A stretch of 64,000 nucleotides of DNA. It comes from a virus. The stretch covers positions 854-64,853 of IMG/VR virus record IMGVR_UViG_3300021256_000014, one strand, 5' to 3'. A program made the translations under genes and the position numbers. Below, one piece after another: positions 19,440-63,611 of the stretch. Under the pieces are notes generated by a model. The model worked only from the letters and a program-made list of their open reading frames with translations, was not told the DNA's origin and ran no database searches. Within the stretch, counting starts at the first letter, position 1. Each line of letters opens with the position of its first letter.

Positions 19440-19440
19440 C

Positions 19441-20215: not shown

Positions 20216-20238
20216 AAAAGAGCTAAAAATTCTGCGAA
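20211..20238 (-). promoter_or_regulatory. 28-bp phage motif
   Basis: tcattaaaagagctaaaaattctgcgaa. Confidence 0.7.
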
Positions 20239-20291
20239 AAATAAAGAGCCCAGATAAATACCTGAGCCCTTGTGCGGTTACCGCCAGTGTG

Positions 20292-20414: not shown

Positions 20415-20447
20415 ACCCTCACCTCCTTTCTTGTGACTTACTGGGTT

Positions 20448-20475
20448 CCATTAAAGGAGGTTATTTATTTGCGAA
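20448..20475 (-). promoter_or_regulatory. 28-bp phage motif
   Basis: ccattaaaggaggttatttatttgcgaa. Confidence 0.65.
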
Positions 20476-20491
20476 AGAAAAGAGCCCGGAA

Positions 20492-20737
20492 CTAAATCCG
20501 AGCCCATCCGTAAAGATCGTCATACGGACCAACTTTTAGTATTGCTTCAGGGTTTACTGCTTCTTCGTATTCATAAATAATCTTCCGCAGCTCAAGAAGA
20601 CTCATGTATCCATAGGTGTTAAATTCTGCAACCACCCTATCTAATATCATGCCTCTCATTTCGTACGGGATACCACTTAATACGAGTAAAGTAGCAGTAG
20701 CTTCCTTTAAGCTTTCAACTGCTCTGTTAGTATCCAT
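20492..20737 (-). CDS. hypothetical protein
   Basis: Cassette ORF; GYMSLLEL...DDLYGW resembles the C-terminus of 14294..14935. Confidence 0.6.
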   Translation of the reverse strand: MDTNRAVESLKEATATLLVLSGIPYEMRGMILDRVVAEFNTYGYMSLLELRKIIYEYEEAVNPEAILKVGPYDDLYGWARI

Positions 20738-20751
20738 AAGTTACCCTCCTT

Positions 20752-20779
20752 TCATTAAAGGAGCAAATATAAATGCGAA
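20752..20779 (-). promoter_or_regulatory. 28-bp phage motif
   Basis: tcattaaaggagcaaatataaatgcgaa; SD begins immediately downstream. Confidence 0.7.
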
Positions 20780-20829
20780 AAAAAAAGAAAGAGACCATAA
20801 AGGTCTCCTCCTTTGAAACTTCTTTCGAT

Positions 20830-21297
20830 TCAATGTTTGAAGAATCGACCAGACAGGCCATTCTTCACAACCGTCTGCTCTGACGTTGTCAGTAAGGCGT
20901 TCTCTTTCTCGAACTCTGTCGATCGATCGAACATCTTAATCTGCGCAACCGCAGAGAAAATCGTTGCCGCTGCTATCCCGCCCTTGCCGACAAGATCAAG
21001 AATTGCTTTTCTCGTGTCGCTCTTGACTTCGGACTCATTCCTCTCACGCTCTGCCTTGATAGCTTCAGCCTTTGTGTTAGCCTCGCTAGCAATTTTCTCG
21101 CGCTCGACCTTGAGTTCCTCGCTCTTCGCCTCCCGATCGAAGTCATTCTTGATATCGGCGTTAAGCTCGTGATAGAGCTTGCTGATCGCCTCGTACTTCT
21201 GCACAGCATCTTCATCAGATGGATCGATCCTGCCAATCGCATCAAGAAGCGCCTTATTAGCCGCCAGTTTCCTAGCCGTGAAATCTTCTGCTGTCAT
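20830..21297 (-). CDS. coiled-coil membrane-associated phage protein
   Basis: Cassette ORF with hydrophobic segment and FEKE motif. Confidence 0.65.
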   Translation of the reverse strand: MTAEDFTARKLAANKALLDAIGRIDPSDEDAVQKYEAISKLYHELNADIKNDFDREAKSEELKVEREKIASEANTKAEAIKAERERNESEVKSDTRKAILDLVGKGGIAAATIFSAVAQIKMFDRSTEFEKENALLTTSEQTVVKNGLSGRFFKH

Positions 21298-21333
21298 TTA
21301 GTTCTCCTTTCTTATTTGAAAGTTTACAGTTTC

Positions 21334-21361
21334 TCACTAAAGGAATAAAAATATAAGCGAA
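21334..21361 (-). promoter_or_regulatory. 28-bp phage motif
   Basis: tcactaaaggaataaaaatataagcgaa. Confidence 0.7.
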
Positions 21362-21379
21362 AAAGAAAAGACCCGTGAA

Positions 21380-21691
21380 TTACTCACGGATCCAATCAGT
21401 TGGACATTCCTTAAAGCTACGTGATATAGCATACAAATATTTCTTTGTGTAACTGTTTTTTCTTTTCCTCAACATGCTAGCATATACAAACACTAAATTT
21501 CCAATCGGCACGCAATAGCAGACTATGTCATGTTTTTTGAATTCTTTACGTAAATCTTTGAATTCGTCGAATGACAATGCTCTGCACAACACGGCTAGAT
21601 TTGGATTCTTTGCCATATCGCCAGCTAATGTTTCAGGCGTAACCCAAGTGTTTTCCCAGTTACCATTCCTAGATAATATTTTCATACTCAT
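21380..21691 (-). CDS. hypothetical protein
   Basis: Start MSMKIL after GAAAGGAG. Confidence 0.6.
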   Translation of the reverse strand: MSMKILSRNGNWENTWVTPETLAGDMAKNPNLAVLCRALSFDEFKDLRKEFKKHDIVCYCVPIGNLVFVYASMLRKRKNSYTKKYLYAISRSFKECPTDWIRE

Positions 21692-21720
21692 ATTCGTCTC
21701 CTTTCTAGGTGTATTGTTCC

Positions 21721-21748
21721 TCACTAAAGGAGTAAAAATATAAGCGAA
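21721..21748 (-). promoter_or_regulatory. 28-bp phage motif
   Basis: tcactaaaggagtaaaaatataagcgaa. Confidence 0.7.
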
Positions 21749-21802
21749 AAAAGAAGAGCCAATCTTTCGATTGACCCTTCAGTCGACAGTTACAAATCTT
21801 TC

Positions 21803-22093
21803 TTACTTCAGAAGCCAGTTACCTGCTTTTGCTTCCCAGTTTGAGCACCAGATGAAAGCGTGACCAAGACCATGCTTTGCGCCTGTGCCAACCTTAACTG
21901 CACCTCCGGCAACGGTCTTCCCGGCCGTGACTACACCGTCAGCTACCACTGTGCCCGCATCGCAGACTGCAGTGATACCAACCTTGTACCACGGCTGTTT
22001 AGCCGTCTCCGTAGGCTTGTCAGACTTGGCAAACGCTGTCATAGACATCGTCATAACCATCATCATTGCTACTACAATAACCATTTTCTTCAT
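21803..22093 (-). CDS. secreted small protein with signal peptide
   Basis: MKKMVIVVAMMMVMTMSMTAFA signal peptide then Gly/Ala/Val amphipathic repeats. Confidence 0.65.
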   Translation of the reverse strand: MKKMVIVVAMMMVMTMSMTAFAKSDKPTETAKQPWYKVGITAVCDAGTVVADGVVTAGKTVAGGAVKVGTGAKHGLGHAFIWCSNWEAKAGNWLLK

Positions 22094-22125
22094 AACTTTA
22101 TCCTCCATAAAAGTTTGTTTTCTTG

Positions 22126-22153
22126 TCATTATAGAGGCATAAATTTATGCGAA
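22126..22153 (-). promoter_or_regulatory. 28-bp phage motif
   Basis: tcattatagaggcataaatttatgcgaa. Confidence 0.7.
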
Positions 22154-22168
22154 AAAAAAGAAGGAGAG

Positions 22169-22303
22169 TTAATCTCCCTCTTCTTCATTGAGTTTATCGC
22201 ACACTATTAAACATACGACTATTGCGGCTACAAACCATGTTACCGGACTTGTCAGTATTTCAGACCATGTTCCGAAATAATATCCCCAAGTGTTAGTAAT
22301 CAT
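22169..22303 (-). CDS. 44-aa single-TM protein
   Basis: MITNTWGYYFGTWSEILTSPVTWFVAAIVVCLIVCDKLNEEEGD; AAGGAGG RBS. Confidence 0.6.
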   Translation of the reverse strand: MITNTWGYYFGTWSEILTSPVTWFVAAIVVCLIVCDKLNEEEGD

Positions 22304-22347
22304 AATTTACCTCCTTATAAAATCAAATGTATTATTTGTGTTTCTTC

Positions 22348-22375
22348 TCATAATGAGGAGGCAAATTTATGCGAA
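22348..22375 (-). promoter_or_regulatory. 28-bp phage motif
   Basis: tcataatgaggaggcaaatttatgcgaa. Confidence 0.65.
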
Positions 22376-22392
22376 AAAGAAGAGGCCAGACA

Positions 22393-22632
22393 TCAGTCTG
22401 AACCCCTTTCTTTTACAAAACTGCAACATAAGTAAATTATGTCATACGGCCAAAGAATAATGTTGATTACGCAAGCCAATAGTAACGCTACCGTACAAGC
22501 GGCCCCATATAAACCAAACTCGCGTTCGATAAGCTTTCGATGTATTCGTTCTGCTTTACCGAGCATACGAAACATAGTCCATATGTTACCAATAATACAG
22601 TAAATCAATAACTTAAATATCAAATTATTCAT
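22393..22632 (-). CDS. small membrane protein
   Basis: Two hydrophobic segments; AAGGAGG RBS. Confidence 0.6.
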   Translation of the reverse strand: MNNLIFKLLIYCIIGNIWTMFRMLGKAERIHRKLIEREFGLYGAACTVALLLACVINIILWPYDIIYLCCSFVKERGSD

Positions 22633-22668
22633 AATGTCCTCCTTAAACAAGTACGTATTTACAGTCTC

Positions 22669-22696
22669 TCACTAGAGGAGCAAATAAAATTGCGAA
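22669..22696 (-). promoter_or_regulatory. 28-bp phage motif
   Basis: tcactagaggagcaaataaaattgcgaa. Confidence 0.7.
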
Positions 22697-22746
22697 AAGG
22701 AAAGAGCCCGGATTTTAGTCCGAGCCCATCCTTTTGACAGATAAGG

Positions 22747-22959
22747 TTATTCTTCTTCTTTTCTCTCTTTTTCAATTTCCTTACTGATAAAGTCGATAAG
22801 TGTCGTGCCAATTACCAGGCGGATCATGAAGTATATCAGCAGTAACCCTCCAATCAACCCAAGGTTACTTACTATAAATGCTATAGTAAGCACCGGGTGG
22901 AATAAGAGCAGTAACATAAATATAACCCAGATCGCCTTAACAATGGTTGATAGCTTCAT
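22747..22959 (-). CDS. small membrane protein
   Basis: Highly hydrophobic 70-aa cassette ORF. Confidence 0.65.
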   Translation of the reverse strand: MKLSTIVKAIWVIFMLLLLFHPVLTIAFIVSNLGLIGGLLLIYFMIRLVIGTTLIDFISKEIEKERKEEE

Positions 22960-23007
22960 TATTTATCCTCCTTTTTTGAATCCGATTTAAAGTTACAATC
23001 TTATCTG

Positions 23008-23035
23008 TCACTATAGAGGCAAAAATATAAGCGAA
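23008..23035 (-). promoter_or_regulatory. 28-bp phage motif
   Basis: tcactatagaggcaaaaatataagcgaa. Confidence 0.7.
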
Positions 23036-23083
23036 AAAAGAAGAGGCTTGGATTTTCTCCAATAACCTCTCTTTTGACTTTAA

Positions 23084-23287
23084 TTACTCTTCAATCAGTT
23101 TCTGATAATCTTTCCAAAATGCTTTTGTGATCTTCCTGCCCCATTTGATTGTCCATTTGACGAGCTTCTTCATCACCCTGTCACTCATTAACACCTTCCA
23201 GGTGATAAACATAGTTACCAGGGATCCAAGCGTGATCCCGCCACTGATCATCAAAATAGTTACAATAATCTCATTCCATTCCATCAT
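23084..23287 (-). CDS. small membrane protein
   Basis: TM segment plus basic amphipathic tail. Confidence 0.65.
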   Translation of the reverse strand: MMEWNEIIVTILMISGGITLGSLVTMFITWKVLMSDRVMKKLVKWTIKWGRKITKAFWKDYQKLIEE

Positions 23288-23325
23288 ATATTACCTCCAT
23301 AAATTGTTTGAATGTAGTTTTCTTG

Positions 23326-23353
23326 TCATTATAAGGAGGTAAATATATGCGAA
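23326..23353 (-). promoter_or_regulatory. 28-bp phage motif
   Basis: tcattataaggaggtaaatatatgcgaa. Confidence 0.7.
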
Positions 23354-23366
23354 AAAAGAAGAGGCG

Positions 23367-23600
23367 TTAAGCCTCCTCCTTTTGTAGTAAGTCCATGAGT
23401 GTGGCTACCCTGTCGTTAAGTTCATGAGTCTCTGCGGTCAGTTGCTCGTAAGCTTCAATAACAGATGTTATGAGCTCGTCGTCTTTTGCTTTTTCTCTAT
23501 GTTCGTCTATCACATCGGCAACGTGCTCGATCCAATAATCTGCTGTTGAAAGATACATCGCAATATAGCCCAGAGTATCCAATCGTGATACTTTATCCAT
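23367..23600 (-). CDS. small acidic helical protein
   Basis: Cassette ORF; GAAAGGAGGT RBS. Confidence 0.65.
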   Translation of the reverse strand: MDKVSRLDTLGYIAMYLSTADYWIEHVADVIDEHREKAKDDELITSVIEAYEQLTAETHELNDRVATLMDLLQKEEA

Positions 23601-23618
23601 AAGTAGTTACCTCCTTTC

Positions 23619-23646
23619 TCACTAAAGGAGTAAAAATTTATACGAA
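23619..23646 (-). promoter_or_regulatory. 28-bp phage motif
   Basis: tcactaaaggagtaaaaatttatacgaa. Confidence 0.65.
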
Positions 23647-23662
23647 AAAAGAAAGAGAAGCA

Positions 23663-23869
23663 TTAACGCTCCCCTTTCAGTCCTGCTACTATAATTTTTC
23701 TTAATTCTTTTTTCTCTTCATCTGTTAATGATACACTTATATCTTCTTTAAAATCAGCCATGTCTATTTTACCAGCCTTCTTGCATTCAACCGCTAAGGT
23801 CACAAGGTCTATTTCTCTCCTAATCTTAGCAAGTTGAGCATCCTCGGTAAGTAATCTTTTCCGACTCAT
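23663..23869 (-). CDS. hypothetical protein
   Basis: Start MSRKRL after GAAAGGAG. Confidence 0.6.
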   Translation of the reverse strand: MSRKRLLTEDAQLAKIRREIDLVTLAVECKKAGKIDMADFKEDISVSLTDEEKKELRKIIVAGLKGER

Positions 23870-23897
23870 AATAATCTCCTTTCTGTGAATCATTACC

Positions 23898-23925
23898 TCA
23901 CTAAAGGAGCCAAATTATCTGCGAA
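23898..23925 (-). promoter_or_regulatory. 28-bp phage motif
   Basis: tcactaaaggagccaaattatctgcgaa. Confidence 0.7.
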
Positions 23926-23979
23926 AAGAAAAAAGAAGAGCCAATCTTTCGATTGACCCTTCGAGATATGAGACTATTT

Positions 23980-24381
23980 TCAGCCCCAAGGAAATCTTCC
24001 GCATTTCCCATCTGTAATTTTTACAATGTTTTCACTGCGCTGACTTTTGTAGGCCGTAATTCCGCCGTGCTTTTCAAGCATTTTATCTACAACTTCCACA
24101 GGCACATACCCGTAGACGGTGTTTGTCAGATCATCAGGATCTTCCGCGAAGTCGAGAATCATCTCCTCCTCCTTAGACGGATAGCCAAGTTCGACCTGTT
24201 TATAGTCGATTTGCCCATCTTTTCTGGGAGTGCAGTAATGATACTGACTCGCTTGAATCGAGATCGCAAAACCGTCTGCGCACACTGCCCATGGGCGAAT
24301 GTCCTGTACTGTTACAGCACGGGCTCCAAGCCCTACAAGTTTAGCGCTATAAAACTTCTTTAAAAACTCATTTGTGTTCAT
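23980..24381 (-). CDS. conserved phage hypothetical protein
   Basis: CADGFAISIQAS..HYCTPR...VELGYPS...TVYGYVP...KHGG pattern. Confidence 0.7.
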   Translation of the reverse strand: MNTNEFLKKFYSAKLVGLGARAVTVQDIRPWAVCADGFAISIQASQYHYCTPRKDGQIDYKQVELGYPSKEEEMILDFAEDPDDLTNTVYGYVPVEVVDKMLEKHGGITAYKSQRSENIVKITDGKCGRFPWG

Positions 24382-24414
24382 GTTATTCTCCTTTCTGTGA
24401 TGAAAATATAATCC

Positions 24415-24442
24415 TCACTAAAGGAGGCAAATTATCTGCGAA
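24415..24442 (-). promoter_or_regulatory. 28-bp phage motif
   Basis: tcactaaaggaggcaaattatctgcgaa. Confidence 0.7.
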
Positions 24443-24859: not shown

Positions 24860-25042
24860 TGTAACTCAAATGACCGTAACCTGCGTTCTCCTTTCATTAA
24901 AATTACTCAAGTTACTCAAAATACTGCCCTGCGATAGTCTATAGTCTACGCTTTAAAACACGTTTTGCTCGTGGGTTCGAATCCCATATGCTCCATTGAA
25001 AGTACGCCTTTAAAGGGATACGTTACTCAACTTATTACTCAT
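24860..25042 (+). mobile_element. attP site: tRNA 3' fragment (24970-24995) flanked by TTACTCAA arm-type repeats
   Basis: GTGGG-TTCGAAT-CCCAT T-arm plus ATGCTCC-A acceptor strand directly downstream of integrase; TTACTCAA at 24903, 24912 and 25023. Confidence 0.8.
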
Positions 25043-26277
25043 TTAAGCTCGGCAATTGAGTTAATTATCTCTCTCTTTTGCTGAGCTCTCTTTCTGTCCC
25101 TATGATAATGAAGCTCGGTTGTTGAAATATCAGTGTGCCCCATCTGCTTTTCTATAACTTTCGAATCCACATGGTTATCAAGTAGTATTGTTCCGTAAGT
25201 CTTTCTAAGCTTGTGGGGAGATCGTATTGGAATATCAAGCTTTTTGCAGATCTGGTAGAGTCTTTTCCTTATCTGATTTGTATGCATCCTGTTTCCATGC
25301 ATCCCGATGAAGATAAAGTCCGGAGCTTTTCTTAAAATATCAAGAAGCCAAGTGTAGGAATCTGGCACTATTACTCTCCTTACTCCTGCAGGCGTCTTTG
25401 GATACTCTGATACTTCAAAGTAGTTCTTGCCATTTAATCTAAACTGAGTCTCCGTTCTATGAACAAAGATTTCCCCGTTTAAAATATCAGAACCTTTAAG
25501 GCACACGACCTCGCCAACCCGAAGACCTGTTGCGAACAATAAAAGGACCCCAAGACACGACAAATCGTCTAAATGCTCTTTGCAGTACTTTGTAACCATC
25601 TCGATCTCATCGTCGTAAAAGATCTCTTTTGCATCATCAACTATCTTTGGCTTAAAGTCAGCCTCACTCATATCGAGGTCTTGAAATATCATTTCAACTG
25701 AGTATGGAAAGAGCCCCATTCTCTTTGCCTTTTTAAAGATGCCCTTAGTTAAGGTCTTTAAATTGGAGAAAGCCTTTCTTGACAGATGGTATTTTGCAAC
25801 CTGGTCTTCTAAAAAGGTCGAAATATCATTGGGAGTAACCCTGCTTATCCTCTCTTTTCCAAAGTCAGCAAAGAATTTCTCAAAGTCGTGGTCAAACCTT
25901 GTCGCAGTTGAGGGCTTGATTTTGCCAATTTCGACTCTTCTTTTATTCCACTGAGCATAAATATCATTGATTGTCGGATCTGTTGCGTTGTTCTTGTAGT
26001 AAGATACTATAAGCTTTTCAAGTTCTGCCCTGTCCTTTCTTTGAATTCTCTTTCGATCCGGCAGGTAAGTGACCCACCTCCCATCTTTGTTTTGATAGAT
26101 TTTGTACCTGTGTTTCTTTAAGTATTCCTGATTTTCCATTTCCTTTATTCTGCAGATTACGGTCTCATCAAGAATACCATTTTTGAGTAACTCATTCAAC
26201 AAAGTGTCCATGCTAGCATAATAACTTGAGTAATGGTCACCCGGATTCGAAAAAAAATAGAGCCGTGAAATATCCAC
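25039..26277 (-). CDS. int: tyrosine recombinase / phage integrase
   Basis: TGLRVGE, PKT, SPHKLRKTY, MGH...Y catalytic motifs; start may be Met at 26211. Confidence 0.9.
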   Translation of the reverse strand: MDISRLYFFSNPGDHYSSYYASMDTLLNELLKNGILDETVICRIKEMENQEYLKKHRYKIYQNKDGRWVTYLPDRKRIQRKDRAELEKLIVSYYKNNATDPTINDIYAQWNKRRVEIGKIKPSTATRFDHDFEKFFADFGKERISRVTPNDISTFLEDQVAKYHLSRKAFSNLKTLTKGIFKKAKRMGLFPYSVEMIFQDLDMSEADFKPKIVDDAKEIFYDDEIEMVTKYCKEHLDDLSCLGVLLLFATGLRVGEVVCLKGSDILNGEIFVHRTETQFRLNGKNYFEVSEYPKTPAGVRRVIVPDSYTWLLDILRKAPDFIFIGMHGNRMHTNQIRKRLYQICKKLDIPIRSPHKLRKTYGTILLDNHVDSKVIEKQMGHTDISTTELHYHRDRKRAQQKREIINSIAELK

Positions 26278-47104: not shown

Positions 47105-47611
47105 TTACTTCTTGGGTTTCTTCCAAGGTTTCTTTACTTTTCTGGCATTATAGTTCTGCCAGTACTCTTCTTCTGACAGATTCCATCCACTCGCTCTATC
47201 TCTCGCGTTGGCATTTCCAGCGCGAAGCGCGCTTCTAAATCGTTTTACGCCATGAGCTCTTGAATCGTTGTATTTAAGGGCTCCATATGAGCCAAGAAGC
47301 GATGCCTGAGCAAAAGTTTTTCTGGAGCTCATCCTGGCAATACGCTCGTTAGTAGCTTTATCATGTTTCGAATAGAGTCGATTTGCAGATGCAACTCTCT
47401 CCTTCATCCACTGCTCTCTGGATGCCGCAATCTTTTTCCGCTTCTGATCCTTGGAAAGAGACTTATCTCTCTTAATTGCCTTACGATTCGTTTTGTACAT
47501 GGCCTTGGCGGCTCTAACTCGCCTATCATGACGGATCCCCCAACGCATGCCAAGAACGCCATAGTGCTGGAGAGAATCCCCTTCTCTTACAACAGCGTAG
47601 TATTCGCTCAT
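47105..47611 (-). CDS. basic protein with LxHYGxxGMxWG leader (putative internal virion protein)
   Basis: MSEYYAVVREGDSLQHYGVLGMRWG; very K/R rich. Confidence 0.65.
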   Translation of the reverse strand: MSEYYAVVREGDSLQHYGVLGMRWGIRHDRRVRAAKAMYKTNRKAIKRDKSLSKDQKRKKIAASREQWMKERVASANRLYSKHDKATNERIARMSSRKTFAQASLLGSYGALKYNDSRAHGVKRFRSALRAGNANARDRASGWNLSEEEYWQNYNARKVKKPWKKPKK

Positions 47612-48477
47612 TTTGATTTCACCTTCTTCCCCTTTTTAATGGTTGTGGTACCTTTGGCCACTTTCGGCTTTCTTTGATGAGGACGATCGGACCATTGGGC
47701 GGTGCCATCTCCTGTTTTCTTACCTTCTGACACTTTTATTGAGTTCGTATCAACGCGCCAGGAAGATAGAGAGGGGAGCCCCAACAGTTTCGCCAATCTG
47801 TTCCTTTTTCTATACAGTTTTGCCGTTGTCTTAGTTAGCGTACCGTCTTCGTTCTTATCCACTTTCTTATAATCCTTAACATCCCAGCCAAGATCATGGT
47901 AGCCCTTCTTTGCTTTCTCAGATACACCCTTAGCGGCGCGCTTAACCTGATACGTAGCAGCCCCGGCAGCCTTTCCAACACCGCTGTTAGAAATCTTTCC
48001 AAGAAGTGTTTTATCGTATTTGTTCTTCGCCTTCTCGTACTCGCCATAGGTTTTCTTAGTAAGGGCTTTGTCTTTTGCCAAAGTCTTTGCAAGCTTCTTC
48101 TCTAAATTTCCACCCGGCTTAAAGTTTGGGTCGGTCTTGATCATAGCAACGGCAAGTGCTAGATTCTTTCCCTGATTGTAGAAAGCGTCTTTCATAGCTT
48201 TGCCGGTTTTCTTTTTTCTTATGAGAGCACTTACGCCAACCTTATCGTCGACGGCTTTTACAGCACTCTTTGCGCCGCTTGCAACTCCTCCAGCAGCCTT
48301 CCCGGCTTGATACGCAGCGTATTCGGCAGGATTATAAAAGTAACGGTACTTGCTTCCTACCTGCACTCTGGTAAAATATTTGTGGTTCTTTTTCTGAGAA
48401 CCTTTCTTTCCAAAGCCAAAGAGGTGTTCAAGATGGTCATCCTGCCCTTCTCTGACTACGGCGTAGTATTCGCTCAT
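47608..48477 (-). CDS. basic protein with LEH leader (putative internal virion protein)
   Basis: MSEYYAVVREGQDDHLEHLFGFG; paralogous N-terminus with 57372..57917. Confidence 0.65.
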   Translation of the reverse strand: MSEYYAVVREGQDDHLEHLFGFGKKGSQKKNHKYFTRVQVGSKYRYFYNPAEYAAYQAGKAAGGVASGAKSAVKAVDDKVGVSALIRKKKTGKAMKDAFYNQGKNLALAVAMIKTDPNFKPGGNLEKKLAKTLAKDKALTKKTYGEYEKAKNKYDKTLLGKISNSGVGKAAGAATYQVKRAAKGVSEKAKKGYHDLGWDVKDYKKVDKNEDGTLTKTTAKLYRKRNRLAKLLGLPSLSSWRVDTNSIKVSEGKKTGDGTAQWSDRPHQRKPKVAKGTTTIKKGKKVKSK

Positions 48478-48485
48478 CTTTAACC

Positions 48486-50231
48486 TCACTCAAATGAATC
48501 TTTGTATAATTTGTAAACAACCCACGCGTCCATCAGAGCGGAGACGTTATCAATCTTCTGCTCGTAGCGATCCTTTAAAAGCTTCCTGTTTCCGTTAGTG
48601 TCCTCGATGGTTATACAGTTGCCCATCGTAAAAGACATGATCTCCTCGTCAAACAAAAGCTTCCTATCCTCTGCAAGATGCTTAAGCTCGCCAAGCGGTA
48701 CAGACTCGGTTCTGGCTCCCTGTATTACTTTCTCAACGCCAAAAGAGCCGTTCTCGCTCGTCCATCTTTCGATAAACTCTCTGGCATTGTAAGGGTCATA
48801 TCCAACCGCTCGAACATCGTAAGCAACTCTTCCGTTGATAAAGTCATACAAATTCTCATACACCATAGTCATATCAAGAGCAGTGCCTGGCATGACGATG
48901 AGCGATCCTTCACTTAAGAACTTCTCGTACTTCATTCTCATAGCCATCGGAAGCTTGTACAGAGTCCGCTCCGTTATGTAGCTTCTTGCCTTTACGCCAA
49001 ACCTGTCGCCGCCAAGCGGAAATAAGAATGTAAAAGCACAGAAGTCATCGCCTCTTGACAAGTCGCACCCCATGGCACAGGGAAGCTGCCAGAACTCTCT
49101 TTTCTTATGAAGCTTGGTTTCTTCATAAGTAAAGAAGTAAGTGTAGCCTTCCATCGGGATGCCAAACCTTTTGGCTAAAATATCATTTCGAGATGCCGGC
49201 GCTTTCTCGGCCCTTTCCTTATCAAGCTGGTAAGTTTCGTAGCTTACCGTCTTTCCAAGGTTGGGATTGGCTTTGAGCCACATTGCCGGATTCTCAACTT
49301 CCTTAATGTCGTCAAGCCTATAGTAGAAGATTGAGACATGCGGGGCGATATAGTCGCCTCTAAGGATGGACATAAGCTCCATTTTGATCGTGTCGCCAAC
49401 CGAGTTTCGAACCGTTCCTTCAGATGAGATTGCAAGGATTGTGTATGTTTCGTTTTTACTTGCGCCCTGCTCCAAAGTACCGATAACATCCTCTCTGATA
49501 TCGCCAGACAGCCATTCGTCAACCGAGTTTATCGGGGAGTTAAGACCCTGAAGCTTATCAATCGACATGGGTCTGACCTCAAGAAGCGACCCCGTTAAGA
49601 AGTTCTGAATTCCCTTCTTTGTTGAGGCAAGCTTTACTCTGTTTGCCTTAAGACCTGTTGTGTTCTGAAGAGAACCTTCAGTTAGAAACTTAAAGAAAGG
49701 ACCCCTTGACCTTACAATCGCAGTTCGAATCGGCCCCATGACCTCTTCCGCCTGTGGCATCGTAGGTGCCGTGGTTACCTGATGTGTTGTTGCAGGGTTT
49801 ACGGTTAATTCGTATGCCTGAATACAGGCAACATACATAGATTTGGCTGATCCTCTGGCCGTTATTATGTACTGCTTTTTAGTCAGCCTCTTCTTGTGCT
49901 TCCTCGTTACGTATCTACCGCCTGACTTATTCTGATACGGCTCAAAAGCACTGATTTCTTCGTAGTAATACCAACCGTAAAGCTCCTCTCCCCATAACTT
50001 GAACGAATCCAGCAAATGAAGGTCAGAGCCATCGGTAAGCGTGAGCTCATTCTCGCAGAACCTGATCCATCCCTCAACCGCCTGGTCGTCGTAGTAAACT
50101 CCCGGGTTTCTGATAAGGTCGTCGATCCTGTTCATTTCCATGGAGATCTCACGGTTTATTGGTATTTCGCCACGAAGCACTTTCTCCCTAAACTGTCCAT
50201 AGTACTTAGGAGTTGCGGTGTTTGAAAGCAT
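48486..50231 (-). CDS. terL: terminase large subunit
   Basis: ARGSAKS Walker A, SVDEW Walker B, GCDLS..DD, YDPYNA, KIDNVSALMDA nuclease motifs. Confidence 0.9.
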   Translation of the reverse strand: MLSNTATPKYYGQFREKVLRGEIPINREISMEMNRIDDLIRNPGVYYDDQAVEGWIRFCENELTLTDGSDLHLLDSFKLWGEELYGWYYYEEISAFEPYQNKSGGRYVTRKHKKRLTKKQYIITARGSAKSMYVACIQAYELTVNPATTHQVTTAPTMPQAEEVMGPIRTAIVRSRGPFFKFLTEGSLQNTTGLKANRVKLASTKKGIQNFLTGSLLEVRPMSIDKLQGLNSPINSVDEWLSGDIREDVIGTLEQGASKNETYTILAISSEGTVRNSVGDTIKMELMSILRGDYIAPHVSIFYYRLDDIKEVENPAMWLKANPNLGKTVSYETYQLDKERAEKAPASRNDILAKRFGIPMEGYTYFFTYEETKLHKKREFWQLPCAMGCDLSRGDDFCAFTFLFPLGGDRFGVKARSYITERTLYKLPMAMRMKYEKFLSEGSLIVMPGTALDMTMVYENLYDFINGRVAYDVRAVGYDPYNAREFIERWTSENGSFGVEKVIQGARTESVPLGELKHLAEDRKLLFDEEIMSFTMGNCITIEDTNGNRKLLKDRYEQKIDNVSALMDAWVVYKLYKDSFE

Positions 50232-50252: not shown

Positions 50253-51377
50253 TTATAGTCCGAGACGCCTTCTGTTGTTATCGGACAAATCGGATGTTAA
50301 ATCATCAAGATCTTTTAAAACCTCACTTATTGGTTTGCTACCACTACCCTTAGGTAACGTAATGTTCCTGGGTTTCGGAAGATCAGAAACCTTTGTGTCC
50401 CTTGTTGCGCTAGAGAAGATGCTGTAATCGCCATCCCCAAGCTTGAACCCAGAATCAAAGTTTGCTTTCGGCGTGGTAGGTGCAGGGTTAGACGCAGGTG
50501 CAGATTTTGGAGTAGAAGAATCATTCTTAAACACGCTCCAGTCACCTTCCTTCAGCTTGAACCCCTGGTCAATCTTCCCATGCCCGCTCACGCTTGCTTG
50601 AAGTTTTCGCTGCTTCGCCTCATCGCTTTCGTTTTCCTCTCGCTTGGTTCCACTAACGCTCTTAAGCCAGTCAAGAGTTTCGTTGTCTTTGATTCGATCG
50701 CTAGCCTCTTTGAGCTGCTTCTCGGTTTTCTTCTGCTGGTAAGCCTCGCTTGCTTTATTTGCCGCATCCTTAGCAATCTTTCCGGTCGCACTCTTAATCC
50801 GGTCGAAAATATCAGGATCTTTGTTATTCATCCAATCTCCGATCGTCATCTGCCCATCGTCGCTATCATTAAGAATGCTCTTAACATCAAGCCCAAACTC
50901 TTTTCTAAGAGCCTGTAGAGACTGATGAGCACCAGCTACAGCATCGAGGGCTTTCTTGCCTGTTCCAAGCGTATCAATTACCTTATCGATCTTTGACTTT
51001 TCCTTAGGCATGTTTTTATTAACCTGCCCGATTGCCAAAGCTCTTGCAGAGGCTTCTCTAAGCTCGTCAGTAGTCATAGAGCCTCGAAGCTTCATGATTT
51101 CGTTAAGATCGGCATTGGCGATAGCTCTTTTCTTAGCCGCCTCAAGGTCGGCTTTAGCTTTCTCAGCTTTAGCCTGAGCCTTCGCCTCTTTCTTTTCGGC
51201 TCTTGCAGCTTTTCTCTCTGCTCTCTTTTTAACCCGGTCTTCCGATCGTCTCTTTTTGCCGGCGGTCTTCAGTGTCCCGTCATAGTTCTGAAATCTTCGA
51301 ATTCCCCATTTCTGGCCTAAGATTCCGTGATGCTCTAAAAACGAGCCATTTTCCATTTCGTCAAAGTATTCATACAT
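50253..51377 (-). CDS. protein with LEHHGILGQKWG leader (putative internal virion protein)
   Basis: FLEHHGILGQKWGIRRFQNYDG motif. Confidence 0.65.
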   Translation of the reverse strand: MYEYFDEMENGSFLEHHGILGQKWGIRRFQNYDGTLKTAGKKRRSEDRVKKRAERKAARAEKKEAKAQAKAEKAKADLEAAKKRAIANADLNEIMKLRGSMTTDELREASARALAIGQVNKNMPKEKSKIDKVIDTLGTGKKALDAVAGAHQSLQALRKEFGLDVKSILNDSDDGQMTIGDWMNNKDPDIFDRIKSATGKIAKDAANKASEAYQQKKTEKQLKEASDRIKDNETLDWLKSVSGTKREENESDEAKQRKLQASVSGHGKIDQGFKLKEGDWSVFKNDSSTPKSAPASNPAPTTPKANFDSGFKLGDGDYSIFSSATRDTKVSDLPKPRNITLPKGSGSKPISEVLKDLDDLTSDLSDNNRRRLGL

Positions 51378-57371: not shown

Positions 57372-57917
57372 CTAGATTTTCTTGTTAGTAAGTCGTCCTA
57401 TCGTTGTGTTCCAAATCTTCCTGTCAAGCCTTCCAAGAGGTGTGGAGTTATGGTAATCCTTAAAACTCTTCTTGGTGCTTTGTTTAGACTGCGTGTATTG
57501 CGAGTGCTTTCCGGCAATATCAAGTGCGGCTCTAATGTCCGCCATAGATGTTGGCTTAAGGCTGTTTACAAGCTCCTTGTAGCTTGGTATGCCTTTCTTC
57601 TTTTTCACGGCTTCAACCACTTTAGGAGCACCATACTTTACAGCGGCAACGTCCCTTTTGACTCTGTATTTAGCCTGGCTTACAAGGTCTGCGTTTGCCT
57701 TATGAAGCTTGCTAAGGCCGGTCTTATTGGCTATGCTCTTTGCTTTGTAGGCAGCAACTTCGGCCGGTGTATAGAGATAACGGTAGCTATCTCCTTCCTG
57801 TACCCTCATCAGGTACTTGTGATCCTTCTTCGAAGATCCTTTCTTTCGCCCAAAGCCAAAGAAGTGCTCTAAATAGGCGCCGGAAGAATCTCGTACTACA
57901 GCGTAATATGTACTCAT
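57372..57917 (-). CDS. basic protein with LEH leader (putative internal virion protein)
   Basis: MSTYYAVVRDSSGAYLEHFFGFG. Confidence 0.65.
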   Translation of the reverse strand: MSTYYAVVRDSSGAYLEHFFGFGRKKGSSKKDHKYLMRVQEGDSYRYLYTPAEVAAYKAKSIANKTGLSKLHKANADLVSQAKYRVKRDVAAVKYGAPKVVEAVKKKKGIPSYKELVNSLKPTSMADIRAALDIAGKHSQYTQSKQSTKKSFKDYHNSTPLGRLDRKIWNTTIGRLTNKKI

Positions 57918-59153: not shown

Positions 59154-59447
59154 CTAAACAGCAACGGAATCTCTATACACTTTGTTATAGATAGGAATTA
59201 GTATGTCTGCATCATGAGGATATAGCTTTACATGCAGACCATAAGGATCAACTTCTAGCAATCTCTGACAACCAAAGTCAACAAGTTCTTCTTGTTCTTC
59301 CATAGGCAAGTCACTAGAAGACTTGGACAGAATAGCAATCCATTGATCTGTATGATAGCCATGCTGTGTGTCATGGTCTAGCCACTCATGGTAGTGTGTA
59401 AAGGGATTCCATGGGTTGTCTATAGTAGTAATCATATAATCACCCAT
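59154..59447 (-). CDS. conserved hypothetical protein downstream of polymerase
   Basis: MITTIDNPWNPFT...W...D...GY motif; RBS. Confidence 0.65.
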   Translation of the reverse strand: MGDYMITTIDNPWNPFTHYHEWLDHDTQHGYHTDQWIAILSKSSSDLPMEEQEELVDFGCQRLLEVDPYGLHVKLYPHDADILIPIYNKVYRDSVAV

Positions 59448-59462: not shown

Positions 59463-62400
59463 TTACTTCTTACCATTAGTGATGTTGTACACACTGCTTG
59501 TAGATATACCTAATCTATCAGCAATCTCTTTACCGCTATATCCTTGTGCTTTCATAGCCTTGGCAATAGACTCTTTTGCAGAAGATATAGCTACAGAGTG
59601 CTTAGGCATGGCACGCTTTTTAAGCTCATCCATGTCGCAATGCCCAAGTATATTTTCAAGCTTATTTGGAGATATAGCGCGCGCCTGAATAGCTTCCCAT
59701 TCGCGATCAGAAATAACGATCCGGTCTTTGCCATTAGGATTATATTTTTTCCTGGAAGCCGTAATGGCTTGCCCACTAAATTTACGCTCTTCCTCATAAG
59801 TCATCTCAGGATTATCGCGTTTTTGATAAAATAACTTCCTATTAGCGTCAAGCTGCGCTCGTCTTTCTCTTGGTGCGTTCTGAAGCGCTCTCTTATATTT
59901 ATCGTCAAGAGATTTAACTTCTTCTGCATATTTTTTCTCAGCTTCAGGGTCTTTTTTATATGTAGTGGTGCTTAACCACTCTTTTCTTGCAGCATTTCCT
60001 AAAGCCTTCATTTGGTTAGCATATTCTGCGTAGTACTTCTCTTTTAAATAACCGGGGTTATCTTTGCTTCCACCAGACGTAAGAGAATATGCATCAGAGT
60101 AGAAATCCATCTTTCTAATTTCGCTGGTCTTGCCCTTTGTTTTAAGCTCTCCCTTAAAATCAGATTCCTCTGCATAGCGGCGTGTCTTCTTTCCGGGATT
60201 AGCAGGATCATTCACTAAATAATATAGTCTGTCACTGTTCTTGTCCCGATTAACAATAACCTTGCCGCCCTTCTCATACTCGCTTTCAGAAATATACTTT
60301 CTTATTGGCTTACCAGTAGTTGCATCCACATCGTCGTAATATGACAGACCAGTCTTTCTTTCCTTCTTGACAGTTACATATTCGCCAGTAGAAATAAGAC
60401 GATCCTTAATATTACCACTAGTGGTGGTCTTGCCAGTTGTCTTAAATATCTTCTCGCCAGTTTCAGGATCTATAGATCTCTTTATTTCTCCGGTCTTCGG
60501 ATCTATAGACTCCTTTGTTGCAAACCAGTCTTTTCTCTGGTCTACATGGATAGGACTCTTTGCTCTGGATATGATAGTAGAAGCTCCACCAGTTTGATAT
60601 ATTTCCTTAAGCTCTTTGATTCCATTTTCTTTCTCAGACCGTTTCCAGTCGAGCTCGTGCTTTTCAGCGTCAATAACAACCATGGAATGTTTAACGGCTC
60701 TTGCGATATGATCATCCGGCGCACCTTTAAGTGTCATATCCGTAATAAGATTGGATACTTTACCCATCTCCTGCTGTTTGAGCTTATTGGTAATAACCTG
60801 CATTCCCTCATATTTAGGATATGCTTCCTGAGGATCAAAATCCTTAAGCTCTTTTAAAGAGTCTTTAGATTTGATCCTTACTTTGCTACTAAGTGGAATA
60901 ACGACAACAGTATCGCCATCGAAATCAGCGCCTGACAATTTAGCAGCATTCTTAGAATTAATACCAACAGCATCCGGCACATCGCCTAATATCTTCTGTG
61001 CCACAGACCCTTTGTTTCTAACTGTAAGCTCAGCTATCTCAAATGGTCCTGCGTGGGGATATCGAATGCATGCAACCCTAGTTCCGTCTTTGTAGTTAGG
61101 CGCATATATTTCGTTATCCTTAAGTTCAGGAAATGGCAAAATAACATGCGTCTGCTGACCAGGAAATGGCGCCGCTTTAAGCTCAGCTGCGGCAGAGTCG
61201 CATTTGTCGCCAAACTGAATAAGAAGATTTTTCTTAATAACAGGATTTTCCAATCCTTTGATCTCTTCGTATTCAAGTTTCTTATATTTTGCGGCTAAGC
61301 CAAGCTGTCTTTCGATAAGCTCTTTAGGCTGCTTGGATAAGAACTGAGAAGCAAGATTTTTATCCCACTTCATCCATGTGCCTTCGGCATTAACTATATT
61401 TGCGGCGGAAACATGTCTCGTTCCATCTGGGGCATCGTACTGAAGCTGAGAAGATATCTTATCATCAATACTTGCGCCAAACGGATTATCCCAGTTGATC
61501 TCTTTAGTACCGTCTGCATTCTTCTTGGTCTTCATCTGCTTTAAGACGGTATTATCGCCTTCGCCAAGCATGGGAGTGCCTTTGTGTTTATTCGTGTTAA
61601 ATACAACATCGTATCCTTCAGGGATATCATCAGAATACCGGCACATGCCTTTAAGATAATGAGTATTGTCAACGCCCATTCGTATCTGGGCATATCGAGA
61701 TGATCCAATAGAAATATCATCCATTCCTGGGCGAATCTCAATAAGACCATCTTTCTCTTTACCGCCATCTTCAGCATACCTGATTAAGACTCTATCTGAA
61801 GATATACACTCTACTTTGTGAAGACCAAGCTCTGTAAGATCGCCGTTAGCATCATAGACTTTAGGTTCATCTTTTACTCTGGCAATATCGAATTTATGCT
61901 CAAGCAGATCAGAATATGTTACATCCGGAGCAGTAAGCGTCTTTATGGTAACCATGTTGCCAGGAGAGCCCATGTTACGAATATAAACAAGTTCCTGATG
62001 ATAACCCTTATCCTCAAGCAGAGCAATGGCGTTATTAAGATTACTTGAGTTTGTACCAAGCTCAAGCTCGGTTCCCGGGCCTACATCGATATACTTCTTC
62101 TTATCGACTAAAGCTTTCAAAATATCGGCCGTCTGTTCGGCAGCATCTCTCTTGCCAGATTTAAAGTCGTTGATCCATCCTCTGATAGTAGACTCGTTTA
62201 CAGCCTTGCCGGTATCGGTGTACTTTGCCATCTCTTCGCCGATCTTACGCTTGCTCCAGTCAGGATGGTCTTCTTCATATTTGGCAGCCATCCTCCTAAG
62301 CTCAGCAGTACGATTCTTTGTAGCAACGGCATAATCTTTGGCAAGCTTGTCTGTTGATGGTTCTCCTTTCTTATTTACGCATCCAAGCTTTTGAGCTATT

Positions 62401-62573
62401 TCAATCTCTTTAAGTCCTTCTCGCCTGAGTTTGCGGACCTGATTGTAAAAGTCGAAATATCGCTGAAACCCATCTTCTCCGGATCCCCAAGGATATCGTC
62501 CAGAATGCCCGCCATTAAGATGACCAACGCCATAATGTGATAAGAAATCACCAGTCTCATCAACGAAGTACAC
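59463..62573 (-). CDS. single-subunit two-barrel RNA polymerase (YonO/cellular-RdRP-like) with N- and C-terminal HTH domains
   Basis: IRYPHAG and KLSGADFDGDTVVV catalytic motifs; C-terminal HTH GYSGKEIADRLGISTSSVYNI; GTG start at 62573 after AAGGGGTG. Confidence 0.75.
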   Translation of the reverse strand: MYFVDETGDFLSHYGVGHLNGGHSGRYPWGSGEDGFQRYFDFYNQVRKLRREGLKEIEIAQKLGCVNKKGEPSTDKLAKDYAVATKNRTAELRRMAAKYEEDHPDWSKRKIGEEMAKYTDTGKAVNESTIRGWINDFKSGKRDAAEQTADILKALVDKKKYIDVGPGTELELGTNSSNLNNAIALLEDKGYHQELVYIRNMGSPGNMVTIKTLTAPDVTYSDLLEHKFDIARVKDEPKVYDANGDLTELGLHKVECISSDRVLIRYAEDGGKEKDGLIEIRPGMDDISIGSSRYAQIRMGVDNTHYLKGMCRYSDDIPEGYDVVFNTNKHKGTPMLGEGDNTVLKQMKTKKNADGTKEINWDNPFGASIDDKISSQLQYDAPDGTRHVSAANIVNAEGTWMKWDKNLASQFLSKQPKELIERQLGLAAKYKKLEYEEIKGLENPVIKKNLLIQFGDKCDSAAAELKAAPFPGQQTHVILPFPELKDNEIYAPNYKDGTRVACIRYPHAGPFEIAELTVRNKGSVAQKILGDVPDAVGINSKNAAKLSGADFDGDTVVVIPLSSKVRIKSKDSLKELKDFDPQEAYPKYEGMQVITNKLKQQEMGKVSNLITDMTLKGAPDDHIARAVKHSMVVIDAEKHELDWKRSEKENGIKELKEIYQTGGASTIISRAKSPIHVDQRKDWFATKESIDPKTGEIKRSIDPETGEKIFKTTGKTTTSGNIKDRLISTGEYVTVKKERKTGLSYYDDVDATTGKPIRKYISESEYEKGGKVIVNRDKNSDRLYYLVNDPANPGKKTRRYAEESDFKGELKTKGKTSEIRKMDFYSDAYSLTSGGSKDNPGYLKEKYYAEYANQMKALGNAARKEWLSTTTYKKDPEAEKKYAEEVKSLDDKYKRALQNAPRERRAQLDANRKLFYQKRDNPEMTYEEERKFSGQAITASRKKYNPNGKDRIVISDREWEAIQARAISPNKLENILGHCDMDELKKRAMPKHSVAISSAKESIAKAMKAQGYSGKEIADRLGISTSSVYNITNGKK

Positions 62574-63246
62574 TACCTTCACCCCTTTCAAACTTACTTG
62601 CAACATCGTTTATATGTAAAATAGTATTGAGCAAGGATTTAATTTCTTCGCCTGTAGGCTGCTCAATATATATTTCACCATTCTGATAAATCCGAGCTTC
62701 AAAGTTAGTTTTAAGAGGGTCGAGTCTGTTCTCATAACAGTATAAAGCGGAATAAATAAAGACCTGCTCAATCTTGGCAGGCCTTGAACCGGTTTTCAGA
62801 TCAGATATTCTAAGCAGATTGTCTTTAGGATAAAAACGAACAGCATCTGCGGTCCCCTCAATTAGCTTGGATACCGAGAGCTTTTGCTCAGATTCCATCC
62901 TAAAGCCTATTGAATCACAAACGAACATCTTCACGGATAAGAACGCTTCCCCAGGAAGATATCGAAGATGGTTAAGAAATGTCGAGCCAATTTTAGAATC
63001 GTACAGCTTCGATGTCTCCATCATGTACTTATCATAAATATAACTCTTAACTCCTCTCTCAACTTCTCTTATGCCGGAGGGCTTGGATCCTAATATAATC
63101 TGATGTGATGCCCATTCATGTATCTCCGTTCCAATATCCGAACGATACTTGTTCTTGAATGCTTCAATAACTTGTGCATCCGTGTACCGCACCCATGATG
63201 GTTGGCTAGGAGGGAACGGCGCGTGCGAAATGCTTGTCGAGCTCAT
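62560..63246 (-). CDS. PD-(D/E)XK Cas4/RecB-like nuclease
   Basis: GTEIHE, SEQ.L, GTADA, ISDLKTG, EQVFIY motifs. Confidence 0.75.
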   Translation of the reverse strand: MSSTSISHAPFPPSQPSWVRYTDAQVIEAFKNKYRSDIGTEIHEWASHQIILGSKPSGIREVERGVKSYIYDKYMMETSKLYDSKIGSTFLNHLRYLPGEAFLSVKMFVCDSIGFRMESEQKLSVSKLIEGTADAVRFYPKDNLLRISDLKTGSRPAKIEQVFIYSALYCYENRLDPLKTNFEARIYQNGEIYIEQPTGEEIKSLLNTILHINDVASKFERGEGSVLR

Positions 63247-63526
63247 GAAGTATTACCTCCTCGTTCTCAGGAAAAATATAAGCGGCAAACGACATCTCGT
63301 TTAACCGCTTAACATACCTTGGCTGATTAGCCCTTGTTCCTGTTTGTTTTTTAAGTGCTTCTTTCTCGCTCTTCTTCACCTCAAGCACGGCCCAATAATC
63401 TTTATACAATATCGTAAGATCAGGAATACCACTCTTGTAATTTGGGTCATTCTTTAGAACCATACAGCCGGGATAGCGATCTTTAAGCTTTTTAATGAGA
63501 TCCTTTTGAAAGTCTCTCTCAAGCAT
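63206..63526 (-). CDS. VRR-NUC / Holliday junction resolvase-like nuclease
   Basis: ERDFQ...GIPDL...LEVK...NQ. Confidence 0.75.
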   Translation of the reverse strand: MLERDFQKDLIKKLKDRYPGCMVLKNDPNYKSGIPDLTILYKDYWAVLEVKKSEKEALKKQTGTRANQPRYVKRLNEMSFAAYIFPENEEVILHELDKHFARAVPS

Positions 63527-63546
63527 TAAATCACCACCCTTCAAAG

Positions 63547-63574
63547 AAAAATGAGAACAAAATTGCTTGTTCTC
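63547..63574 (-). terminator. hairpin plus T run just downstream of motif (attenuator-like)
   Basis: GAGAACAA-GCAATT-TTGTTCTC-ATTTTT. Confidence 0.5.
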
Positions 63575-63583
63575 TTTCCTATT

Positions 63584-63611
63584 CTATTATAGGCGAAAAA
63601 ATGCGCGCGAA
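63584..63611 (-). promoter_or_regulatory. divergent copy of 28-bp motif upstream of nuclease-polymerase operon
   Basis: ctattataggcgaaaaaatgcgcgcgaa; same spacing. Confidence 0.5.

Follow-up and report, generated by a model that had tools for sequence, protein, structure and literature searches.

Single-chain RNA polymerases with two barrels have been studied at the bench in a few cases only, namely YonO, phi14:2 gp66, and gp64 and gp96 of phage P23-45, and their promoter recognition is mostly not understood. YonO of the temperate Bacillus prophage SPbeta, an enzyme of about 100 kDa, has been shown to be DNA-dependent and processive. We analysed a stretch of 64,000 bases of phage DNA (hereafter the window; bases 854–64853 of a virus record of 64,853 bases rated 100% complete) which holds two items of interest: a minus-strand open reading frame (ORF) for a polymerase of this kind with helix–turn–helix (HTH) modules, and a repeated promoter-like element of about 30 bp.

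The other described enzymes differ in the way they are deployed. The Thermus phage proteins P23-45 gp64 and P74-26 gp62 have about 590 residues, are not virion proteins and lack HTH flanks; gp64 has its own promoter motif and transcribes early genes. phi14:2 gp66 has a two-barrel fold of the QDE-1 clade and, like the N4 vRNAP, travels inside the particle and is injected to transcribe the early genes; the gp66-made transcripts show no common promoter motif. The N4 vRNAP is a T7-like enzyme and not a two-barrel one. Both phi14:2 and N4 are lytic, while the window phage carries an integrase; the logic of particle delivery proposed for the window protein would be the same.

The family to which the window protein belongs has been in print for some time. 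Ruprich-Robert and Thuriaux (Nucleic Acids Research, 2010) list the protein of Lactococcus phage 1706 as one of five YonO-like families, separate from that of YonO itself, and name eight residues invariant across two-barrel polymerases, including R962 and P964 of QDE-1. In Koert et al. (2021; bioRxiv 842583), the protein appears as an HTH protein which HHpred matches to RNA-dependent RNA polymerases (RdRPs) and which has a DxDGD motif and an HTH at either end. It is called a ‘signature genetic element’ shared by an actinophage supercluster and by Lactococcus and Faecalibacterium phages (FP_oengus); the word ‘promoter’ is used 0 times in their text. The window gene is a further member of this already described family, and the claim that it encodes such a protein is not new, given the 2010 assignment and the 2021 description of the HTHs and DxDGD.

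We propose that the polymerase is most likely a sigma-independent DNA-dependent RNA polymerase that initiates, again most likely, at the ~30-bp element TCGCr-N14-T(A/T/C)T(A/T)(A/G)T-GAGA. The element heads about 19 monocistronic small-gene cassettes as well as the polymerase's own VRR-Nuc/exonuclease/polymerase operon, and the HTH modules would serve as a built-in sigma factor. The virion would probably contain copies of the enzyme that are delivered along with the DNA, with a conserved disordered L-x-H leader as the mark for incorporation and perhaps for cleavage. We infer polymerase activity, promoter reading and packaging alike from sequence and predicted structure, and the complete mechanism of sigma-independent polymerase, own promoter and leader-dependent virion delivery may equally well prove right or wrong.

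The polymerase and its family

An ORF of about 1040 codons, with R-Y-P-H followed by KLSGADFDGD, had been claimed in the original prediction and was located as described (Table 1). The product is likely to have 1036 residues and to start at GTG 62573, which is codon 12 of the ATG-started frame 59463..62606 and is preceded by GAAAGGGGTGAAGG; the first Met of at least 90% of 50 aligned homologues coincides with this GTG. R515, P517, S558, G559, A560, D561, D563, G564 and D565 are invariant in 50 of the 50 aligned sequences, whose identity to the window protein goes down to 43%. Five of the eight invariant residues listed in 2010 map by motif (R515, P517, D561, D563 and D565). R272, R309, K319, D333 and K356 are also invariant among the 50 sequences, without residue-by-residue mapping to D709, R738 and K743 of QDE-1. 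That the three metal-binding aspartates, R515 and P517 never vary suggests that the active site is maintained. A structural or DNA-binding protein without catalytic activity, in which only the fold is kept, would agree with the annotation in most of 250 phage records (‘HTH DNA-binding domain protein’ or ‘structural protein’), but not with such invariance over so wide a range of identity, and we regard it as very improbable.

Table 1. Features of the window discussed in the text (positions in the window; residues refer to the polymerase).
Feature	Position	Strand	Remarks
RNA-polymerase-like ORF	59463..62573	−	1036 residues from GTG 62573; ATG at 62606 would give 1047 residues
N-terminal leader of the polymerase	62469..62573	−	VYFVDETGDFLSHYGVGHLNGGHSGRYPWGSGEDG; conserved, predicted disordered
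N-terminal helical region	62157..62450	−	Residues 53–150; two predicted HTH-like pairs (AlphaFold2 model and family Pfam matches)
Two-barrel polymerase core	59973..61814	−	Residues 265–878; range aligned with QDE-1 681–1186 in the predicted model
RYPH	61053..61064	−	Residues 515–518; R515 and P517 are R-x-P of two-barrel polymerases
DFDGD metal-binding loop	60912..60926	−	Residues 561–565; KLSGADFDGD from residue 556, SGADFDGD 558–565
C-terminal HTH	59475..59582	−	HTH_23 match at residues 1018–1042, 32.5 bits versus cut-off 24.6
VRR-Nuc-type endonuclease	63206..63544	−	First gene of conserved operon
PD-(D/E)XK exonuclease	62560..63246	−	Second operon gene; phrog_3953
Small conserved ORF after the polymerase	59154..59447	−	phrog_4303; last gene before the genome end in actinophages
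Motif array in small-gene cassettes	15376..24442	−	19 strong 32-nt copies; consensus TTCGCATATATTTTTGCTCCTTTAATGAGAAA
Weak intragenic match in cassette array	18642	−	Weight matrix
Isolated motif copy, replication region	7827..7858	−	Weight matrix
Divergent motif copy before polymerase operon	63580..63611	−	TTCGCGCGCATTTTTTCGCCTATAATAGAATA
Terminator-like hairpin and T run	63553..63574	−	Between operon motif copy and operon
Basic protein with leader	57372..57917	−	MSTYYAVVRDSSGAYLEHFFG
Protein with leader	50253..51377	−	...GSFLEHHGILGQKWG; DUF7211 23 bits, sub-threshold; just upstream of large terminase
Protein with leader	47608..48489	−	MSEYYAVVREGQDDHLEHLFG
Protein with leader	47105..47611	−	MSEYYAVVREGDSLQHYGVLGMRWG; DUF7211 member, 30.2–33.5 bits (cut-off 27)
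Integrase	25039..26277	−	phrog_1, E 1.4e-49; between lysis genes and cassette array

Profile searches assigned the protein to PHROG 4291 (‘RNA-dependent RNA polymerase’) with an E value of 3.9e-290 and 966 bits, the best stretch covering residues 16–759. The Pfam RdRP family (PF05183) matched residues 554–656 only, at 17.7 bits and below the curated threshold of 23.8; the protein is related in fold to these polymerases and is not a member by the gathering cut-off. When the entire protein was searched by sequence against the PDB, 0 matches were obtained at E values up to 1, P23-45 gp64 and P74-26 gp62 being no exception, and relatives surfaced by fold search only. For this an AlphaFold2 model was built on the 50-member alignment [mean predicted local distance difference test score (pLDDT) 81.8, predicted template modelling score 0.67, residues 1–50 below a pLDDT of 50]. 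The top Foldseek matches in the PDB were QDE-1, P74-26 gp62, P23-45 gp64 and RDR2 (E 1e-7 to 1e-4); P23-45 gp96 (E 1.2e-3) and, as a weak match, phi14:2 gp66 (E 0.012) followed at lower rank.

With VIA-align, model residues 264–882 were superimposed on QDE-1 (2j7n_A) with a Z score of 15.3 and a root mean square deviation of 4.2 Å over 361 residues. Z scores were 14–15 for RDR2, 13.3–13.5 for P23-45 gp64 and P74-26 gp62 (340–349 residues) and about 10.9 for multisubunit polymerases. The double-psi barrels, whose lack from the model would have refuted the original prediction, are found in the predicted model, the alignment with QDE-1 running across both barrels, the connector and the bridge helix; the AlphaFold and Foldseek check recommended there places QDE-1 first. 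QDE-1 and RDR2, the best structural matches (336–382 residues spanning both barrels), also have the DbDGD loop and the R-x-P residues in common with the window protein. They differ from it in sequence (12–16% identity) and carry neither HTH modules nor a leader, and their RNA-silencing role has no counterpart in the phage. Sequence and predicted structure together show family identity and fold: the ORF almost certainly belongs to the ‘1706 family’ (PHROG 4291) of single-chain two-barrel RNA polymerases. Judged by the modelled structure, no other prokaryotic group comes closer in fold to QDE-1 and RDR2, the eukaryotic RNA interference (RNAi) polymerases. A beta-rich insertion of about a dozen short strands was observed after the bridge-helix region (residues 685–831; 60114–60554), with recurring turns K-T-G-E and P-x-T-G-(E/K).

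Within the family, proteins related to ORF75 of phage 1706 are 34–44% identical over 82–99% of the protein among the matches listed, and have in common DxDGD, R-x-P, HTHs at both ends and the gene order VRR-Nuc/exonuclease/polymerase/small ORF. The window copy differs in residing in a 64.7-kb gut phage with an integrase, in its local motif variant and in an N-terminal HTH that stays below the Pfam cut-offs.

At the C-terminus an HTH is present, as HTH_23 exceeds its cut-off, but the description as sigma-region-4-like is only loosely right because Sigma70_r4_2 remained below threshold (17.3 bits versus 25.7) and because the C-terminal profile matches many generic HTH proteins of the PDB and is not specific to sigma region 4. 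At the N-terminus the model shows helix pairs at residues 53–73 and 119–149. Here the claimed HTHs hold for the family, an HTH-type family being above its cut-off in three of five homologue fragments tested, and not for the window protein taken alone (HTH_23, 17.1 bits, sub-threshold).

The family is widespread. By tblastn it was found in 250 of 50,697 phage records, all with less than 60% identity, headed by Arthrobacter (95), Gordonia (55), Streptomyces (54), Lactococcus (13) and Faecalibacterium (2) phages, and the gene is nearly always no more than about 0.6 kb away from the right-hand end of the phage record. A collection of 5.8 billion proteins contains at least 7951 clusters with E values of 1e-5 or better (8000 candidates scored), and 322 stretches of bacterial species genomes hold the family. 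DNA nearly identical to window positions 40000–64000 was not found in the phage collection. Cuneatibacter caecimuris DSM 29486 has two full-length homologues, on contigs C5 and C10, with 48% and 46% identity, so that a single host may well harbour two related prophages. Contigs with homologues were also binned to Muribaculaceae, Prevotella, Bacteroides, Treponema, Melainabacteria, Burkholderiaceae and a Bathyarchaeum metagenome-assembled genome (MAG); many of these contigs are phage-sized (55–65 kb), so these host assignments may be binning artefacts.

A promoter-like element and its candidate reader

A weight matrix was built from the repeat family of the window and sites above 12 bits were counted. 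It finds 21 sites, all on the minus strand, compared with 0–1 in each of 20 Markov-simulated sequences. The 28-bp motif for which 21 occurrences had been claimed corresponds to 20 strong copies plus the divergent copy in front of the polymerase operon, again all on the minus strand. All 20 strong copies have T2, C3, G4, T13, T23 and T26; 19 have A24 and G27, and 18 have A28. At position 22, 10 copies have T, six have C and four have A. In 15 of 21 copies the motif is followed, no more than 28 nt away, by a ribosome-binding site. The T runs of minus-strand terminator hairpins directly abut the TTCGC of most strong copies on the upstream side, and the cassette region contains 24 terminator-like sites as opposed to 6.9 ± 2.3 in shuffled sequences. 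Given the abutting T runs and the ribosome-binding site soon after the motif, any cassette promoter must overlap the motif.

The window motif is the local form of a more general promoter-like element of about 30 bp, TCGCr-N14-T(A/T/C)T(A/T)(A/G)T-GAGA, as judged from comparison of sequences. Clusters of this element on a single strand were found in Arthrobacter, Gordonia, Streptomyces and Lactococcus phages and in two gut phage records; in the phage genomes compared, the copies cluster in the small-gene region between the tail/lysis and the replication genes. The window cassettes have GCTCC and T(T/C)TA(A/G)T in place of the boxes TTACA and TATAAT. A repeat search revealed 10 copies of TCCACA-N2-TTTTACA-N5-CTATAGT-AGA in Lactococcus phage 1706 and seven of CGCGTAAATTACA-N5-CTATAATGAGA in Arthrobacter phage Mudcat. 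The window weight matrix gave nothing convincing on phage 1706, the single 9-bit match lying inside a gene.

To count copies in one way for all genomes, the single regular expression C[GA]CN-N14-TAT[AT][AG]T was applied (numbers are given for the gene strand, the opposite strand and the Markov mean). It yielded 13/0/0.3 for Gordonia phage Gill, 12/0/0.1 for Streptomyces phage Rima, 7/0/0.9 for Mudcat, and 15/1/1.0 and 10/5/2.3 for the viral records G002 and G001. The count of 9/3/2.1 for phage 1706 includes two of the nine that look like chance. The expression suits the window poorly (4/2/1.1) because the motif variant differs there, and the window figure rests on the weight matrix instead. 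A Faecalibacterium prophage gave a weak signal, with four forward and one reverse match in 80 kb.

A pattern scan of viral contigs found 93 stretches with the motif. Among motif-selected records, two reach a completeness of 90% or more, and the polymerase is encoded in both (43–46% identity); their motifs read TTCGCG-N14-TATTAT-GAGA and TTCGCA-N4-TTACA-N5-TATAAT-GAGA. Three of five motif-selected multi-hit records had no polymerase match, but these are fragments of 24–64% completeness and, being incomplete, are uninformative. A search with the pattern TCGC-N15-TNTARTGAG gave 0 matches in five gene-bearing isolate genomes or MAGs, which says nothing about absence since their prophages use the variants TATAGTAG or TTTTATGA.

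The same association is seen at bacterial loci. Of 322 stretches, 80 were taken, and 74 were used after six had been dropped for short upstream DNA. In 51 of these 74 loci a motif copy is located 850–1450 nt upstream of the polymerase match (54 hits), which indicates that the polymerase operon is usually headed by the motif. The background was low, with six hits elsewhere upstream and three on the opposite strand, and with three forward and four reverse hits in 359 kb of gene and downstream DNA. The hexamers of the operon copies (51 loci, the window and G001) are TTTTAT in 29, TATAAT in 11, TATTAT in nine, TTTAAT in three and TCTAAT in one. On the co-occurrence check proposed in the original prediction, the motif accompanies the polymerase across phages of different host phyla and in bacterial loci.

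The geometry of the motif, as far as sequence can tell, does not fit sigma-70. The TCGCr box and the hexamer are 14 nt apart in every aligned copy, as against 16–18 nt for the sigma-70 criterion. A at position 2 of the −10 hexamer is the base most needed by sigma-70 factors; only four of the 20 cassette copies and 20 of the 53 operon copies have it, while 16 and 33, respectively, lack it. T at position 6 is found in 20 of 20 cassette copies. Sigma-70-type sites are not enriched (22 versus 16.8 ± 4.5, and 20 versus 25.2 ± 5.4), and phages of both Actinomycetota and Bacillota retain the upstream box together with the GAGA tail. A Sigma70_r2 domain was not detected in the complete phage genome, a test which a diverged sigma factor or a MotA-like activator would escape. 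Matches to Sigma70_r4 were sub-threshold only, in two small cassette ORFs and at the C-terminus of the polymerase. One 52-codon frame inside a cassette (20313–20402, minus strand; Sigma70_r4 19.1 bits versus 24.1) may encode a small HTH regulator among the early genes.

These data have to be weighed against a division of labour like that of YonO. In T4, the activator MotA replaces the −35 contact. Host RNA polymerase, perhaps with a phage activator of that kind, would read the motif and thereby transcribe the polymerase operon and the early cassettes. The late structural genes would fall to the phage polymerase, which would start at one or a few sites, for example in the gap 58685–59153. YonO itself serves the SPbeta late operon from one start site, the conserved motif of phi14:2 belongs to the host polymerase, and several relatives have the hexamer TATAAT. 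Moreover, the terS-like, HNH, connector and terminase genes follow immediately downstream of the polymerase operon and share its strand, and the motif at the head of this operon would give a simple early-to-late cascade. The 14-nt spacing, the frequent lack of A at hexamer position 2 and the conservation of upstream box and tail across the two phyla speak against this division, as do the lack of motif copies elsewhere in a host genome (see below) and, with the reservation just made for divergent factors, the lack of sigma region 2; it also leaves the virion label of 1706 orf75 unexplained. On balance we consider it unlikely, although it is the strongest of the alternatives.

The conserved HTH-bearing polymerase is the obvious candidate for the reader of the motif. 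Whether it reads the motif is evenly balanced in our judgement, because the misfit to sigma-A stands against the YonO precedent, the relatives with TATAAT and sigma tests that can be escaped.

The reverse complement of the motif core resembles the textbook T3/T7 promoter cores, with a 12-nt string in common and in opposite orientation to the genes. A search for a T7-like polymerase (PF00940) gave no match in the phage, but it did not pick up the control genomes either and so says nothing about absence. The plus strand of the window at 23896–23925 reads CCTCACTAAAGG, and Rima copies read CCCTATAGTGAG on the gene strand.

A leader common to the polymerase and structural-region proteins

The original prediction had pointed to an L-x-H leader on the polymerase. 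The leader is present, and it is common to four other proteins from the structural region: all five minus-strand ORFs start with a related segment ending in L-x-H-(Y/F/H/L)-(G/F). In the polymerase, H24, G26, S35–R37 and G41–G43 are invariant in the family alignment, yet pLDDT values are below 50. In phage 1706 the segment occurs in two real ORFs, orf7 (LQHRGVIGMRWG) and orf75 (the polymerase homologue), and both are termed ‘structural protein’ in GenBank. This label is carried by 11 scattered ORFs of phage 1706, three of them outside the morphogenesis block, and presumably stems from virion proteomics. An annotation note for ReqiPepy6 repeats the label of the 1706 homologue. In phage Gill, gp16, which adjoins the portal gene, bears the same leader segment. 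That the polymerase may be packaged via its leader is a reasonable supposition from these labels and the shared segment.

Taken together, the system-level reading is coherent, and the conservation of the motif across phyla and its copy at the polymerase operon lend it support. That temperate siphophages have a self-contained system, in which a virion-delivered sigma-independent two-barrel enzyme acts at its own ~30-bp promoter, retained from actinophages to phages of Lactococcus and gut Clostridia, and drives its own operon, is a tentative proposal to which we give somewhat less than an even chance.

Several points weigh against the proposed mechanism. If the polymerase's own operon depends on the motif, an induced prophage starts without the enzyme. 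YonO transcribes one late operon from a single start, and not many cassettes. The hexamer is a perfect TATAAT, the sigma-A consensus, in Mudcat, Gill and G002. A comparison of promoter box and polymerase residues (43 sequences with ACA versus 10 without) placed 11 of the 25 top mutual-information columns in residues 73–196, but as it is without phylogenetic correction and these residues form a variable region, it gives no clear sign of covariation. In a 3.3-Mb Butyrivibrio genome all seven pattern matches are on contig C22 at 58–122 kb, around the polymerase gene, with no match elsewhere and none recovered by a reversed control pattern; as the pattern was built from the same seven copies, the search tests only for absence from the rest of the genome. 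The polymerase leader scores 16 bits against a DUF7211 cut-off of 27, and the ‘structural protein’ label of 1706 orf75 rests on the GenBank record only. Literature searches found no experimental study of the 1706/PHROG 4291 family, and among public sequencing runs only DNA contigs from gut metagenomes hold the stretch, with no RNA run listed. A literature search with the motif strings, judged by titles, likewise found no phage paper.

Should the proposed system of enzyme, promoter and virion delivery hold, temperate phages would possess an orthogonal, ‘T7-like’ system whose enzyme comes from the prokaryotic group nearest to the RNAi polymerases of eukaryotes. If the motif is the promoter of this enzyme, sigma-free promoter finding by a minimal cellular-type polymerase becomes testable with a defined enzyme and a ~30-bp site. 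The pair would then also offer a functional model for the phage ancestors proposed for the eukaryotic RNAi enzymes, and a compact orthogonal expression tool for Gram-positive hosts. Many family members are found in culturable phages of Gordonia, Arthrobacter, Streptomyces and Lactococcus.

Genome context and further observations

The first and last 127 bases of the record are identical, so the assembly is probably circular. Of 87 ORFs picked, 73 are on the minus strand. The order VRR-Nuc, exonuclease, polymerase and small ORF is kept in Mudcat, Gill, Rima and ReqiPepy6, where the operon closes the genome; in ReqiPepy6 the annotated 3′ cos terminus comes next. In the window, the operon is followed on its 3′ side by a gene-free gap of 469 nt (58685–59153), a terS-like ORF (phrog_4259), an HNH endonuclease, a connector and a GDSL-lipase tail-fibre-like protein. 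Further in the direction of transcription are large terminase, portal, a protease–capsid fusion, major tail proteins and tape measure, and then endolysin, integrase, the small-gene cassette array and the replication block with a primase–polymerase. The gap between polymerase operon and terS-like ORF is a candidate cos/pac region by its positional match to the genome ends of cos actinophages.

This gene order bears on another possible function. An active polymerase without promoter specificity might, in the way of QDE-1, use single-stranded or incoming DNA as a template for primers or short RNAs, or might act at genome ends, with the HTHs holding the DNA. The gene closes a replication module next to VRR-Nuc and exonuclease in conserved order and is at the extreme right end in cos phages, and QDE-1 prefers single-stranded DNA templates. 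However, the phage already has a primase–polymerase fusion (ORF 2268–6701; phrog_4210, E 0; primase families at residues 119–463), and the conserved motif that accompanies the gene in promoter position would be left unexplained. We consider such a function improbable.

The temperate lifestyle that had been claimed agrees with the integrase of the window and with homologues residing inside 224–272 kb contigs of the bacterial isolates Butyrivibrio sp. INlla21, Faecalibacterium tardum and Cuneatibacter caecimuris.

Two further observations concern other parts of the window. The major-tail-protein family phrog_2645 is matched by two minus-strand ORFs, 46342–47085 (E 5e-72) and 40835–41527 (E 5e-96), one of which precedes the portal gene; two genes annotated as ‘major tail protein’ are likewise present in Gill and in Rima. 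Direct repeats of two families occur at 616–1008, one made up of TTTAGAGACTACAAA-type units and the other of ATTGTTGACGTTTTTGTAGTCGCAAAAT, the latter with three local copies and a 71%-identical match at 54577. These repeats look like iterons or operators.

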